Shown here in pieces: positions 6,665 to 47,691 of a DNA stretch of 64,000 nucleotides (its first letter is position 1; every line of letters begins with the position of its first letter). A model generated the notes under the pieces. That model saw nothing but the letters and a program-made list of their open reading frames with translations, was not told the origin of the DNA and did no database searches. A program made the translations under genes and the position numbers. The stretch comes from a virus: IMG/VR virus record IMGVR_UViG_3300046171_000227, positions 1 to 64,000 of that record; one strand, given 5' to 3'.

Positions 6665-6823
6665 TCAATCAAATACTTTCCATTTTGGTGTGCCTAGAGA
6701 TTTTAGAAAAACCCACTTAGCATATGTAACACCACGATATGTCAAAAGTCTAAAGACTTTATCTGGATCATGTACCTCTGGATTGTATTCTGGAAGATCA
6801 TATTCTAATTTGATCTTCAGCAT
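6665..6823 (-). CDS. Small YRG-motif (DUF4278-like) protein, 52 aa
   Basis: Translated by hand: MLKIKLEYDLPEYNPEVHDPDKVFRLLTYRGVTYAKW...; GAGGAG Shine-Dalgarno upstream. Confidence 0.6.
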   Translation of the reverse strand: MLKIKLEYDLPEYNPEVHDPDKVFRLLTYRGVTYAKWVFLKSLGTPKWKVFD

Positions 6824-6937: not shown

Positions 6938-7102
6938 TCACTTAGTATAAGTGCGTCCACGATAGCAAAATGTGCCATGTGGTGCTTTACCTGACTTACG
7001 AACTTCACATTCTACACCACGATATTTGGTGAGAGTAATTTGTGAATCATGAAGAGCAGCTTGCTTGCTGATTTGCTCTTTGATAAGTTGAAGGGTGTTC
7101 AT
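6938..7102 (-). CDS. DUF4278-like protein, 54 aa (two YRG motifs)
   Basis: MNTLQLIKEQISKQAALHDSQITLTKYRGVEC...GTFCYRGRTYTK; AGGAGA SD; directly downstream of the glnA-type riboswitch. Confidence 0.75.
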   Translation of the reverse strand: MNTLQLIKEQISKQAALHDSQITLTKYRGVECEVRKSGKAPHGTFCYRGRTYTK

Positions 7103-7159
7103 TTGTTTTCTCCTGAAGTGGGTGATTTTGCTCCTTTAACCCCGTAGGGTGATCCGAGT

Positions 7160-7440
7160 TCCCGTTCCTTCAGTCGTTTGCGTCCGTCAAAGACGGATGA
7201 ACGCTCCGTTCCGCGACTTACTTGCGTCTCATGTGTATGCTCCCTTACATTCCCCCGCAACTTTCGATCTAAGATAACCTATAAGATTATACTTAGATTG
7301 GCGATCGAGATTGGAATCCATTTGAATTTCAACTGATCGTTGTAGAAACCTTTCACAAGACATATGCCAATCGTAAGGATTAGCGTCATTATGATGGGCA
7401 AGGGTTAATGCCAGTAAGATACTGAGCATGAGATGAACGA
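7160..7440 (-). ncRNA. Glutamine (glnA-type) riboswitch with two aptamer-like units and an ORF in the first P2 loop
   Basis: Minus strand: CGTTC-A-TCTCATG[...]CATGAGA-CGCAAGTA-AGTCG-CG-GAACG-GAG-CGTTC-A-TCCGTC-TTT-GACGGA-CGCAAA-CGACT-GAAG-GAACG. This matches the glnA P1/P2/E-loop/P3 layout, and DUF4278-like genes follow. Confidence 0.8.
7229..7429 (-). CDS. Hypothetical 66-aa protein with a hydrophobic N-terminus, nested in the riboswitch P2 loop
   Basis: ORF track; the ATG and TGA both lie inside the 7-bp inverted repeat TCTCATG/CATGAGA. Confidence 0.7.
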   Translation of the reverse strand: MLSILLALTLAHHNDANPYDWHMSCERFLQRSVEIQMDSNLDRQSKYNLIGYLRSKVAGECKGAYT

Positions 7441-7447
7441 CAAGTGT

Positions 7448-7476
7448 ATACTACACTATCAATTCTATTTAGTCAA
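7448..7476 (-). promoter_or_regulatory. Sigma70-type early promoter for the riboswitch transcript, with an overlapping late-like ACTAAATA
   Basis: TTGACT (7476-7471), 17-nt spacer, TAGTAT (7453-7448); predicted start site falls at about the 5' end of P1. Confidence 0.7.
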
Positions 7477-7487
7477 ATGTGTTGGTA

Positions 7488-7736
7488 TCAACACGAACAT
7501 TTATAGTTGATCTTGTTTAGATAATTCAGTGTCTCTTTAAGGCTTCCACGATGATTCACTCCGATAGCAATCTGTGGGTACTCTGCACCTTCTCCAAACT
7601 CTGCTCTGAATTGTTCTTCAGTAAAATCTACATCTAAAAGATATTCATGGAAATCATTATGAATACTTTTAAGAAGCATAGCAGCTCTTTCACATTCTTG
7701 ATTTCCGTTGCTGTAGATCCATGCTCGGATATTCAT
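7488..7736 (-). CDS. Glutaredoxin-fold protein (degenerate CxxC)
   Basis: QECERA...FTEEQFRAEFGEGAEYPQI resembles the Grx at 10500. Confidence 0.6.
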   Translation of the reverse strand: MNIRAWIYSNGNQECERAAMLLKSIHNDFHEYLLDVDFTEEQFRAEFGEGAEYPQIAIGVNHRGSLKETLNYLNKINYKCSC

Positions 7737-14739: not shown

Positions 14740-14860
14740 AAAAGGGTTAGTTATGAGTGCGGGGAACACTAGGTAAAATATTCCAACTCTACCCTCCAGA
14801 GTTGGTATTAGAGGCGTTTTTATACTCCCTAGAGGCCTCGGTTTGTAGAGAGTGATACAA
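14740..14860 (-). ncRNA. Structured psbA leader, probably the PhotoRC-II motif
   Basis: Hairpin CCAACTCT-GGAGGGT-AGAGTTGG, pairing GAGGC/GCCTC and AGTG-TTCCCCG-CACT; located in the cyanophage psbA 5' UTR, where PhotoRC-II occurs. Confidence 0.65.
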
Positions 14861-14893
14861 CTTTACAGAAATTAACATTCTGTGTCGTTGATG

Positions 14894-45313: not shown

Positions 45314-45386
45314 TAGGGGTTGCGAGGATCGAACTCGCCTTAGGCAAATTATGAGTTTGCTGCATTCACCAGATTGCTAAACCCCT
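45314..45386 (-). tRNA. tRNA with CAT anticodon (elongator Met or Ile2)
   Basis: Acceptor AGGGGTT/AACCCCT, anticodon arm GCAAA-CTCATAA-TTTGC, TTCGA T-loop. Confidence 0.85.
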
Positions 45387-45461
45387 TGGTAGGACTGCTG
45401 AGAATTGAACTCAGTTCACACCGTTATAAGCAGTGGGCCTTAACCAATAGGCGACAGTCCC
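45387..45461 (-). tRNA. tRNA-Ile(UAU), CCA encoded
   Basis: GGGACTG/CAGTCCT-A-CCA; CACTG-CTTATAA-CGGTG. Confidence 0.85.
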
Positions 45462-45466
45462 TCAAT

Positions 45467-45637
45467 TCAAGAACCTTCTTCGTGTTCTGTATACATTTTT
45501 AGGAGTTCATCATTCGCTGGTATAAAGACAGCTGCTGTACCGTCTTCTTTGACAACGCCAAGTCTCTCTCCATTCTCAACTCGTGCGAAGAGTTCGTCGA
45601 AATTTTCTTCCCATTCTTTTAAAGAAAAGATTTCCAT
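45467..45637 (-). CDS. Small Phd/YefM-antitoxin-like protein
   Basis: Translated by hand: MEIFSLKEWEENFDELFARVENGERLGV...AVFIP. Confidence 0.5.
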   Translation of the reverse strand: MEIFSLKEWEENFDELFARVENGERLGVVKEDGTAAVFIPANDELLKMYTEHEEGS

Positions 45638-45813
45638 TTGTTAACTATAGTGAAAAGTCCATGAGAGTAGAATCCCAGGACTATCGATCCCAGAATCGCA
45701 CTTATAATTGTAGCAGTTTTATTGTGTTTGTCAATTGCCTTATCAATCATTTCTTGGCACTGTTTTTCCGTAACATAGTGCTCTGGTTTGATTTCATCCA
45801 TCCGATGACTCAT
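45619..45813 (-). CDS. Small membrane protein
   Basis: CQEMIDKAIDKHN followed by a transmembrane helix. Confidence 0.6.
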   Translation of the reverse strand: MSHRMDEIKPEHYVTEKQCQEMIDKAIDKHNKTATIISAILGSIVLGFYSHGLFTIVNKWKSFL

Positions 45814-46027
45814 CTTCTAGTCGCCCCAAAGTAACCATTCTCTCTTCCCATGTTACTCCACCTTCCATTCCAGTACAAGGATTTATGCAGGTTTCATCAC
45901 CGTGATTGTTACATACTAGTCCAGCAAGATCTAATTCGTTCCCTTTCTTGCCAGTATACCAGTAGTGTTGGCCACCTATCCAGGTTGCCTGACACTTTGG
46001 ACACTCTTTAGTATCAAGTGATGTCAT
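45794..46027 (-). CDS. Small Cys-rich protein
   Basis: CPKC...DLAGLVCN...CINP. Confidence 0.6.
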   Translation of the reverse strand: MTSLDTKECPKCQATWIGGQHYWYTGKKGNELDLAGLVCNNHGDETCINPCTGMEGGVTWEERMVTLGRLEDESSDG

Positions 46028-46304
46028 TCTTTGTATGCTCCTTGAGTAATTGTTTTCTGTCTTTCACAAGTTGAGATCTAAGTTTCCTCATCAAGAAGTA
46101 TGATCTCAATTTAATAAAAGAATACCTGACATTAAGATCAATGTATGCTACAAGTCGCATGGTGGCATTATAACCACCTATTAAAATTAATGCAACAAAT
46201 ATCAGGACAAGAAGATAAAAGAGAACCAATATTTTTATGCAGGTATAATTGTATATAGAAACAAAATATTTTCTAACAAGTGTAACATCTTGATACAAAC
46301 ACAA

Positions 46305-46378
46305 TCGGGATGATAGGATTTGAACCTACGGCCACTCGCTCCCAAAGCGAGTGCTCTACCAAACTGAGCTACATCCCG
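46305..46378 (-). tRNA. tRNA-Pro(UGG)
   Basis: CGGGATG/CATCCCG; CTCGC-TTTGGGA-GCGAG. Confidence 0.92.
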
Positions 46379-46380
46379 GA

Positions 46381-46463
46381 CGGAGAGAACAGGAATCGAA
46401 CCTGCGAAGGTGTTACCCTCAGCCGCTTTCAAGGCGGTGTCCTCGGCCAACCGGACTCTCTCC
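46381..46463 (-). tRNA. tRNA-Ser(UGA)
   Basis: GGAGAGA/TCTCTCC-G; CCGC-CTTGAAA-GCGG; long variable arm. Confidence 0.88.
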
Positions 46464-46480
46464 AGGCACATAATAGTTAT

Positions 46481-46963
46481 CTATTCAAAAAAATCAATTG
46501 CTAAACTGTATCTTGGCATAGTTACATTTGGAGGAACAGTATGTTTTATTTTACAGGGCAACAACATCAAAGAGTTGGTTGGACATTCTGTCTTGTAAAT
46601 TTCATTTTCGATATTTAGCCATGATCCAATACCTTCAGGATTATCAATCATATAGACGCAAGTTACATTATAATAACCCGGATAATCATGATCATGCCAC
46701 ACTTCATATGCCAAATCTTTATCAGTATAATTTACCCAAGAGGTTTTAACTGTTCTCGGTATATTAGATTTTTCTGCTATTTTTTTAATTATGGGTGAAA
46801 TAACTTCACATTTCATATGCAAATTATTCAGTGTTTGCAATCCAGGACAACCTTGAACTTTTTCTAAAAAACGTTTTGAACGAATGAATAAATTTACTCT
46901 TTCTTCTTCCGTAAGAATATTATCAATAATTTTTATTGAGTCTAATATATTATCTTTCCTCAT
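46481..46963 (-). CDS. 2OG-Fe(II) oxygenase-like protein within the tRNA array
   Basis: SWVN, WHDH, TCVYM, HTVP...RYSLAID. Confidence 0.6.
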   Translation of the reverse strand: MRKDNILDSIKIIDNILTEEERVNLFIRSKRFLEKVQGCPGLQTLNNLHMKCEVISPIIKKIAEKSNIPRTVKTSWVNYTDKDLAYEVWHDHDYPGYYNVTCVYMIDNPEGIGSWLNIENEIYKTECPTNSLMLLPCKIKHTVPPNVTMPRYSLAIDFFE

Positions 46964-47195
46964 AATTTATTTTACGTACTTTACGTTTTTTTCTTGCCTC
47001 TTGAAAAGCAAGATCCTGAGCAGAAAGTTTATTTGAAATTTTACTTTCTGATGATTTTATCATGACAATTTGACTTAAATCAACTGCTGATACTTTATCA
47101 TTAGTGACTATCATCATGTTAGGACAACCACAGACTTGAGTCTTAGTATTACTACAAATTTCTGTGTTGCATTCTTTGCAACGTACAATAATCAT
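46950..47195 (-). CDS. Small zinc-binding protein
   Basis: CKEC...CGCPN. Confidence 0.6.
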   Translation of the reverse strand: MIIVRCKECNTEICSNTKTQVCGCPNMMIVTNDKVSAVDLSQIVMIKSSESKISNKLSAQDLAFQEARKKRKVRKINYEER

Positions 47196-47219
47196 TTTTC
47201 ATAACCCTCCTAATGGGAA

Positions 47220-47291
47220 TGCTTGATGACGGGATCGAACCGCCGACACCCAGAATGTAACTCTGGTGTTCTACCTCTGAACTAATCAAGC
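47220..47291 (-). tRNA. tRNA-Val(UAC)
   Basis: GCTTGAT/ATCAAGC-A; CCAGA-GTTACAT-TCTGG. Confidence 0.85.
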
Positions 47292-47295
47292 AAAG

Positions 47296-47367
47296 CTCCC
47301 CCACTTGGACTCGAACCAAGAACCGCTCGATTAACAGTCGAGAGCTCTACCATTGAGCTATAGAGGA
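47296..47367 (-). tRNA. tRNA-Asn(GUU)
   Basis: TCCTCTA/TGGGGGA-G; CTCGA-CTGTTAA-TCGAG. Confidence 0.9.
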
Positions 47368-47541
47368 TTGTTTTTTTGTTCCTTCTTTAGTTTGAAATAC
47401 AGTTTATGATAATTATCACACATTTTTCTGAGAACATCTCTGTCTTCGTCAAAACCAAGTTTCTTAGTGTGTTGATAAGAACCTTCTAACTCGGATATAA
47501 GTAGAAGAATTTCAACTGGTTTCATGTTCCTAAAAAAGGAA

Positions 47542-47613
47542 AGCGGAGTATCGGAATCGAACCGACGACATCTAACTTGGAAGGATAGCGTTCTACCGCT
47601 GAACTAACTCCGC
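47542..47613 (-). tRNA. tRNA-Gly(UCC)
   Basis: GCGGAGT/ACTCCGC-T; loop CTTCCAA. Confidence 0.88.
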
Positions 47614-47617
47614 GAGG

Positions 47618-47691
47618 CGTCTCAGGTAGGACTCGAACCTACGGCCGACTGCTTAGAAGGCAGTTGCTCTAATCCACTGAGCTACTGAGAC
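47618..47691 (-). tRNA. tRNA-Arg(UCU)
   Basis: GTCTCAG/CTGAGAC-G; ACTGC-CTTCTAA-GCAGT. Confidence 0.92.

Follow-up and report, generated by a model that had tools for sequence, protein, structure and literature searches.

How does a translated gene come to lie inside a metabolite sensor, and how would sensor and ribosome share the same nucleotides? Riboswitch aptamers are usually regarded as compact untranslated leaders. The window analysed here, a stretch of 64,000 nucleotides (nt), is part of a 75-kb IMG/VR record of a T4-like cyanomyovirus that encodes PhotoRC-II RNA, a tRNA cluster, thyX and speD. On its minus strand a small gene of the Syn9 gp196 family begins in one strand of an RNA helix and ends in the other. 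An earlier note on this DNA placed the gene in the P2 loop of a glutamine riboswitch, and on re-reading the sequence we found each element that it listed where it had been put. We now think it probable that the 5' part of a small cyanophage operon messenger RNA (mRNA) is one composite glutamine riboswitch whose P2 helix spans the gp196 gene, and that the glutamine-bound fold hides the gp196 AUG and frees the ribosome site of a DUF4278 gene. The architecture (helices, nested gene and layout) is well supported by sequence comparison; glutamine binding, both regulatory arms and their sign are what we infer from it.

From the promoter to the end of the aptamer, the RNA is made up of the following parts.

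7476-7448, minus strand: sigma-70-type promoter, TTGACT (7476-7471), 17 nt, TAGTAT (7453-7448), 9/12 match
7439-7435, minus strand: outer P1 5' strand CGUUC, followed by an unpaired A at 7434; invariant in all loci, at RF01739 consensus positions in relatives
7433-7427, minus strand: outer P2 5' strand UCUCAUG, holding the gp196 start codon (7429-7427); covaries with 7233-7227
7429..7229, minus strand: nested gene of 66 amino acids, Syn9 gp196 family (PHROG 6471), ATG 7429-7427, TGA 7231-7229
7233-7227, minus strand: outer P2 3' strand CAUGAGA, holding the gp196 stop UGA (7231-7229); covaries with 7433-7427
7226-7219, minus strand: junction CGCAAGUA (DNA CGCAAGTA), which supplies G of 'CGCA' to the ligand site and forms the E-loop's 5' side; invariant
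7218-7214, minus strand: P3 5' strand AGUCG; covaries with 7176-7172
7212-7177, minus strand: inner, circularly permuted core in P3, identified by sequence, a relaxed Rfam match and P3 nesting
7212-7198, minus strand: first parts of the inner core, GGAACG (7212-7207), GAG loop (7206-7204) and CGUUCA (7203-7198)
7197-7177, minus strand: remaining parts of the inner core, hairpin UCCGUC-UUU-GACGGA (7197-7183) and CGCAAA (7182-7177)
7176-7172, minus strand: P3 3' strand CGACU; covaries with 7218-7214
7171-7163, minus strand: GAAG (7171-7168), the 3' side of the E-loop, and the outer P1 3' strand GAACG (7167-7163), assigned by P3 nesting and energy

P2 is a helix of 7 base pairs, TCTCATG and CATGAGA being exact complements, and its loop measures 207 nt instead of about 4. 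Relatives were sampled as 80 IMG/VR loci with a gp196 homologue and 120 more found with the pattern CGCAAGTA-N6-GGAACG-N3-CGTTCA. The layout is common to these roughly 200 related cyanomyovirus loci and recurs in the named phages Syn9, Syn2, S-IOM18, S-CAM1 and S-SCSM2R; no second copy of the element was found within the 75-kb viral record. All but one of 85 gp196-bearing loci (84/85) have the split layout, with CGTTCA 4-8 nt before the ATG and CGCAAGTAAGTCGCGGAACG after the stop. The two strands of P2 change together. Besides TCTCATG/CATGAGA there are TCTTATG/CATAAGA, TCACT/AGTGA, TCTCAC/GTGAGA, TCTTAC/GTAAGA and TCC-A-ATG/CAT-A-GGA. The gp196 stop codon, be it TGA, TAA or TAG, covaries with bases of the 5' untranslated region (UTR). 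Coding constraints cannot account for this covariation.

In a MAFFT alignment 97.2% of cells pair, against 16-55% when the partners are slid, and 0 of 500 shuffles equal the observed value. Anchored pairing exceeds all 2000 partner shuffles in the outer as well as in the inner hairpin (0/2000 reach it), and RNAalifold predicts P1 and P2 unprompted. The earlier note had staked its proposal on a distal CGTTCA-P2 strand that is conserved and covaries in relatives, and on start and stop codons within the P2 stem. Both hold: the strand is conserved and covarying, and the codons lie in exact complements that show compensatory changes. A local permuted pairing, in which the 3' strand of the first hairpin meets the 5' strand of the second, was rejected, as it reaches at least 5 contiguous pairs in only 2 of 35 haplotypes.

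The open reading frame (ORF) in the loop is a real, conserved protein gene, as had been supposed from the letters. Its homologue is annotated at the same place in the five named phages, it belongs to a PHROG family, and a search of 5.8 billion proteins yielded 88 clusters of homologues, almost all 66 amino acids long and without exception of phage or marine metagenome origin. An alignment of 66 distinct loci gives column entropies of 0.34/0.27/0.82 for the three codon positions, a pattern typical of a coding sequence whose protein is under purifying selection. In the AlphaFold2 model (pLDDT 78), residues 2-13 form a hydrophobic helix at the N-terminus, and residues 25-37 and 43-54 a helical hairpin bracketed by the invariant Cys25 and Cys61. 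The peptide had been called secreted-looking, a description that is not established: the hydrophobic N-terminal helix is short and has no basic n-region. Searches for a function gave zero matches in Pfam, only a family of unknown function in PHROGs, only unnamed phage or metagenome homologues among the 5.8 billion proteins and only viral hypothetical clusters in the ESM Atlas; for the fold, Foldseek returned nothing from the PDB below E = 2.7. The coding region also contains RNA helices, namely a long-range stem (7411-7403/7255-7247) and a covarying hairpin near 7311-7291, with 97.5% of cells paired over 66 loci. In the hairpin, compensatory changes fall at synonymous sites, for example GAC/GAU with CGG/CGA. 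It is suggestive only that these helices may help to bring the P2 strands together.

Where does this RNA begin? The -10 element ends 8 nt before CGTTCA (7439-7434), and the start expected from this promoter is near 7441. Of 159 distinct upstream regions, 133 have a sigma-70-like promoter whose -10 stops at a distance of 7-9 nt from CGTTCA, and in 16 others the T4-late-like TATAAATA replaces it. With the promoter at a fixed distance in relatives, the transcript probably starts just before CGTTCA, in line with the original suggestion. A metatranscriptome contig of 261 nt spans 7441-7205 and ends exactly at 7441; metatranscriptome contigs cover the aptamer region, and four RNA-library runs have no cover at 7461-7501. 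We take the contig end as a weak hint of the transcript start, since neither the start site nor the strand can be proved with contigs. The gp196 leader, read from the sequence, is about 12 nt long and has no Shine-Dalgarno sequence, as had been said.

Many relatives carry a GTA-N8-TAC palindrome (for example GTATCAAATGATAC) directly upstream of the -35 element, in the 15-30 nt range, and the window has an imperfect palindrome, GTGTTGATACCAACAC, at the corresponding place (7494-7479). We take GTA-N8-TAC to be the consensus of the nitrogen regulator NtcA; if the resemblance is true, it would add a second layer of nitrogen control.

Glutamine stabilises characterised aptamers of type 1 and type 2, where it touches C1, the G within CGCA and the CG within GAACG (PMC6698751), and these ligand-contacting nucleotides are all present in the window. 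An RNA that starts about 2 nt before CGUUCA would have the gp196 AUG 12 nt from its 5' end and within P2, and the entire gp196 5' UTR would then be the 5' half of the sensor. A ribosome initiating on gp196 would cover CGUUCA and the 5' strand of P2. A ribosome terminating on gp196 would cover the junction and the 5' strand of P3. Either one would hold P1, P2 and the junction open, so that gp196 translation and the folded sensor would be mutually exclusive. Conversely, the glutamine-stabilised fold would bury the gp196 AUG.

Relatives differ in which of the two hairpins carries an ORF. In the pattern-based sample, the combinations are distributed as follows.

Outer hairpin compact, inner hairpin with ORF: 62 loci
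Outer hairpin with ORF, inner hairpin with ORF: 26 loci
Outer hairpin compact, inner hairpin compact: 7 loci
Outer hairpin with ORF, inner hairpin compact: 3 loci (the form of the window, and the rarest)

All four combinations occur, which argues that the two halves function as one unit. It had been asked whether different ORFs occupy the loop. In the outer hairpin the ORFs are almost all gp196-like; the inner hairpin mostly holds gp197-like ORFs, a single diverse family (Syn9 gp197, PHROG 504). In most relatives the inner ORF runs through the aptamer core (for example L005:685-849, UGG GAC GCA AAC GAC UGA), its conserved C-terminus WDAND ending at the UGA of CUGAAGG. The window has lost the gp197-like ORF and has a hairpin of 15 nt in its place.

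Kinship between gp196 and gp197 is suggestive at most and is not claimed (hhalign probability 9%, E 0.0035, over the Cys-to-Cys segment). A few loci (L061:1656-1826, L084:1737-1907, L120 and L131) hold divergent hairpin ORFs of 57-75 amino acids. These too begin with a hydrophobic stretch and have two cysteines spaced by about 35 residues, a hint that nested ORFs of all kinds form one superfamily.

In the main rival explanation the ORF is a passenger which a variable loop tolerates. The riboswitch would then control the DUF4278 gene only, gp196 (and gp197 in relatives) would have settled in dispensable loops, P2 would be kept for the aptamer, and any effect on gp196 would be incidental. Hairpin loops of these aptamers can vary freely and be replaced (PMC6698751), every combination of compact and ORF-bearing versions exists, and in some relatives the start and stop lie just outside the helix. 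Against the passenger stands the position of the ORFs. About 90 of 105 outer ORFs, like most inner ones, have their AUG exactly 4 nt after CGUUCA, and in about 89 of the 105 the stop is followed by 2 nt and then CGCAAGUA. The gp196 mRNA has conserved helices that draw its ends together, and with a 5' UTR that is wholly the 5' half of the aptamer, competition is unavoidable if both events occur. We therefore rate the passenger explanation as unlikely, while taking it more seriously than any other alternative.

The composite riboswitch also depends on how its helices are nested, and P3 bears on this. We compared the hexamer after CGCAAGTA with the pentamer before GAAGGAACG over 200 loci. The variants change together: AGTCG/CGACT, AGTCA/TGACT (4/4), AATCG/CGATT, AATCT/AGATT and AGTCT/AGACT, with G-U intermediates. 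In an alignment holding every variant class, 100% of P3 cells are paired, and 2 of the 5 pairs have changed on both sides, from GC to AU. P3 encloses GGAACG-GAG-CGTTCA. Thus a fold without pseudoknots pairs these two with each other, and the 5'-terminal CGUUC with the last GAACG (7167-7163). RNAalifold also offers a local hairpin, CGC-AAGUAAGUC-GCG, which is invariant and is broken in AGUCAC variants that keep P3; P3 was preferred.

The outer RNA then reads CGUUCA, P2, CGCAAGUA, P3, GAAGGAACG, which is the order of the type-1 consensus. Both sides of the E-loop are in place, GACGCAAGUA at 7228-7219 and GAAGGAACG at 7171-7163, and Infernal aligns relatives in the same way. The junction CGCAAGUA is aligned by Rfam to the consensus CGGAAGUA in relatives; the role of CGCA in the ligand site is known (PMC6698751). 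Three fully compact relatives score above the RF01739 cut-off of 35 bits (L092 43.6, L133 42.9 and L119 40.3 bits), and Rfam aligns all three by their outer strands, with the inner core as an insert of 38-48 nt in P3. By nearest-neighbour energy, the enforced interlocked fold is 2.5 kcal/mol better than the tandem one (-93.6 vs -91.1 kcal/mol). We assign the outer and inner P1 because of P3 nesting, the Rfam alignment and this small energy difference. One outer type-1 aptamer, with P2 around gp196, a permuted core in P3 and P1 probably at 7439-7435/7167-7163, is well supported on these grounds. What had been described as a neighbouring intact unit is, by the AGUCG/CGACU covariation and the Rfam alignment, the permuted inner core in P3 and not a separate aptamer.

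Reading the same strands as two independent tandem aptamers would give a first unit with CGUUC 7439-7435 paired to GAACG 7211-7207 around gp196, and a second, compact unit at 7203-7163. The sequence permits either P1 pairing, 7159-7205 fits the Rfam model as a unit of its own with 30.1 bits, and glnA RNAs in tandem have been mentioned (PMC2864571). This arrangement is nevertheless improbable. It would turn the covarying AGUCG/CGACU into a pseudoknot across both units, and it leaves the first unit without GAAG and the second without the GUA of the E-loop. The stand-alone unit also stays below the Rfam cut-off, whereas the outer alignment in relatives reaches 40-44 bits, above it, and the enforced tandem fold is the one with the poorer energy.

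Why was the element not recognised by a standard search? At the Rfam gathering threshold no glutamine aptamer is found in the window. At relaxed thresholds, RF01739 scores only at 7159-7205, with 30.1 bits (cut-off 35), and Glutamine-II, RF01704, matches 7154-7206 with 29.2 bits (cut-off 33) and several non-canonical pairs in the 3' hairpin. The window stays below the RF01739 threshold because the covariance model cannot span the insert. That such models would miss the split half had been predicted, and the relaxed search does match 7159-7205 only.

Downstream of the aptamer lie the parts through which the second arm would act.

7162-7103, minus strand: expression platform, in which CUUCAG (7118-7113) pairs with CUGAAG (7173-7168), with the Shine-Dalgarno AGGAG at 7114-7110
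7102..6938, minus strand: DUF4278-like (IF17-like) gene of 54 amino acids, Syn9 gp198 family (PHROG 545)

The hexamer CUGAAG is the end of P3 together with the E-loop strand. Its complement CUUCAG adjoins the Shine-Dalgarno AGGAG, 10 nt before the DUF4278-like AUG. A complementary hexamer stands 9-12 nt before the AUG in 126 distinct platforms, and in 115 of them it pairs at 6 of 6 positions, counting G-U. Aptamers with CUAAAG always face CUUUAG (25/25); where the aptamer reads CUGAAG, the corresponding position is C or U. The anti-Shine-Dalgarno helix CUGAAG/CUUCAG is part of the minimum-free-energy fold. Being conserved and covarying, this helix lends support to the downstream ON arm. In the unfolded aptamer CUGAAG would pair with CUUCAG and mask the Shine-Dalgarno of the IF17-like gene, and aptamer folding would release its ribosome site. 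The gifB riboswitch, a type-1 aptamer, is a translational ON switch for IF17, and the masking agrees with the mechanism proposed for it (PMC6212724).

The match of the 54-codon gene to PF14105 (E 3.9e-4, 21.2 bits) falls short of the 25.3-bit cut-off. A leader of 60 nt separates GAACG (ending at 7163) from this ORF, and an ORF of 32 amino acids follows it. As a separate observation, GUUCAU in the 5' aptamer strand (7438-7433) complements AUGAAC at the start of the DUF4278-like gene (7102-7097), and the two pair in the minimum-free-energy fold. Many relatives have the AUGAAC start and other subfamilies do not.

The platform also bears on the idea that the start-stop helix serves gp196 itself, independently of glutamine, by protecting the 5' end from RNase E/J or by recycling ribosomes from stop to start. 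The helix does sit at the extreme 5' end and does join stop to start. Yet the invariant CGUUCA, CGCAAGUA and GAAGGAACG are signatures of glutamine aptamers that this idea leaves unexplained, as it does the identical helix in ORF-free relatives, P3 and the anti-Shine-Dalgarno helix. We consider it very improbable. Chance complementarity, or a decayed aptamer remnant after gene insertion, has the sub-threshold Rfam score of the window in its favour and nothing further, and is refuted by conservation and compensatory changes over about 200 loci.

Taken together, the arms of the composite riboswitch would favour the IF17-like protein at high glutamine and gp196 at low glutamine. In its strongest form, which we offer tentatively as a possibility, the element would be a two-way switch that silences gp196 and unmasks the IF17-like regulator of glutamine synthetase, with each gp196 ribosome resetting the sensor and the permuted P3 core giving a cooperative response from two sites.

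Several observations weigh against the composite riboswitch. The junction CGCAAGUA departs from the type-1 consensus CGGAAGUA by one difference, C for G. The P1 strands are present and invariant everywhere, and covariation therefore cannot tell which CGUUC pairs with which GAACG. The enforced aptamer fold lies 7.6 kcal/mol above the nearest-neighbour minimum, a gap that, we infer, would have to be supplied by tertiary contacts and ligand. P2 may be slow to close over a loop of 207 nt under translation. In about a quarter of ORF-bearing relatives the AUG falls shortly outside the contiguous helix. Finally, P2 is compact in many relatives, which makes the nested gene dispensable for the switch.

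On its sequence we file the element as a variant of the type-1 glutamine riboswitch: the sequence motifs and helices of RF01739 are there, and the score falls short because of the insert. Type 1 (the glnA motif, RF01739) is exemplified by the Synechocystis gifB/IF17 leader (PMC6212724), and its structure was solved by Ren et al. 2015 (via PMC6698751). The phage element shares with it the order CGUUCA, P2, CG(C/G)AAGUA, P3, GAAGGAACG, a three-way junction with an E-loop, and a downstream DUF4278/IF17-like gene whose ribosome-binding region is complementary to the aptamer's 3' part, as would suit an ON switch. It differs in that its P2 loop is a translated gene of 66 codons with start and stop codons in the helix, in its second, permuted core in the P3 loop, in its place at the very 5' end of the mRNA, and in the sub-threshold Rfam score that the 207-nt insert brings about in the window.

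Type 2 (the Downstream-peptide motif, RF01704) precedes short DUF4278 peptides in marine picocyanobacteria and assembles from two RNA pieces with glutamine (PMC6698751). The ligand-site nucleotides CGUUC, CGCA and GGAACG are shared. Unlike type 2, the phage element has no P2/pseudoknot hairpin of the type-2 kind and reaches 29.2 bits against a cut-off of 33; moreover, in its inner core a 3-nt loop closes P1, and the core opens through P3, an arrangement that we did not find described.

Homing-endonuclease genes in the loops of group I introns (PMC3984707) likewise place an ORF in the loop of a functional RNA, and with these intron ORFs, as with leader-peptide attenuators of the trp type, translation and RNA folding are mutually exclusive. 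In the phage, however, the host RNA is a metabolite sensor and not a ribozyme, the ORF is that of a conserved phage protein, neither a mobility gene nor a sensor peptide, and its start and stop codons lie within the helix closing the loop.

In the searchable literature, outside of which lay Ames & Breaker 2011 and the Syn9 transcriptome paper, we found no P2 around a translated gene whose start and stop codons belong to the helix, no second permuted core in P3 and no wide distribution of the element among cyanomyoviruses. According to a survey of riboswitch distribution, cyanophage genomes contain just two glutamine aptamers and phages seldom employ riboswitches (PMC5473149). This count changes, the element being present, in forms that covariance models miss, in hundreds of T4-like cyanophage contigs. 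If the proposed mechanism is true, the element would be a natural example of competition between a metabolite sensor and a ribosome for the same nucleotides, and might be a single RNA that chooses between two proteins while integrating metabolite level and translation traffic. Because the regulated genes resemble glutamine synthetase inactivators, the device is relevant to the way in which abundant ocean viruses read and rewire the nitrogen metabolism of their hosts. Its permuted inner core and shared P3 also make it interesting for RNA structure and design.

Does the element occur outside phages? Of 185,579 species genomes scanned, 7 have the inner junction (L208-L214), all with a phage-like layout and on contigs in metagenome bins assigned to Synechococcus, Nonlabens, Steroidobacter, Calothrix and a Euryarchaeote. 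These are probably cyanophage contigs mis-binned into metagenome-assembled genomes.

Further features of the operon lie beyond the IF17-like gene.

6823..6665, minus strand: second small gene, 52 amino acids, with a YRGVTY motif and a weak DUF4278 match
6640-6619, minus strand: intrinsic-terminator-like hairpin GGGGGC-ACUC-GCCCCC followed by a U tract

DUF4278-like genes had been expected downstream of the aptamer, and 7102..6938 and, more weakly, 6823..6665 answer to this. The terminator-like hairpin at 6640-6619 is the probable end of the operon. Within 6668-6619, a near-consensus promoter-like TTGACT-16-TATAAT (11/12, with a TG extension) abuts the terminator hairpin GGGGGCACUCGCCCCC-UUUUUU, and a transcript from it would begin in or just before that hairpin. 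Elsewhere in the window, also on the minus strand, the PhotoRC-II RNA lies at 14770-14865 (71.5 bits) and the tRNA cluster, of eight genes, at 45314-47691.

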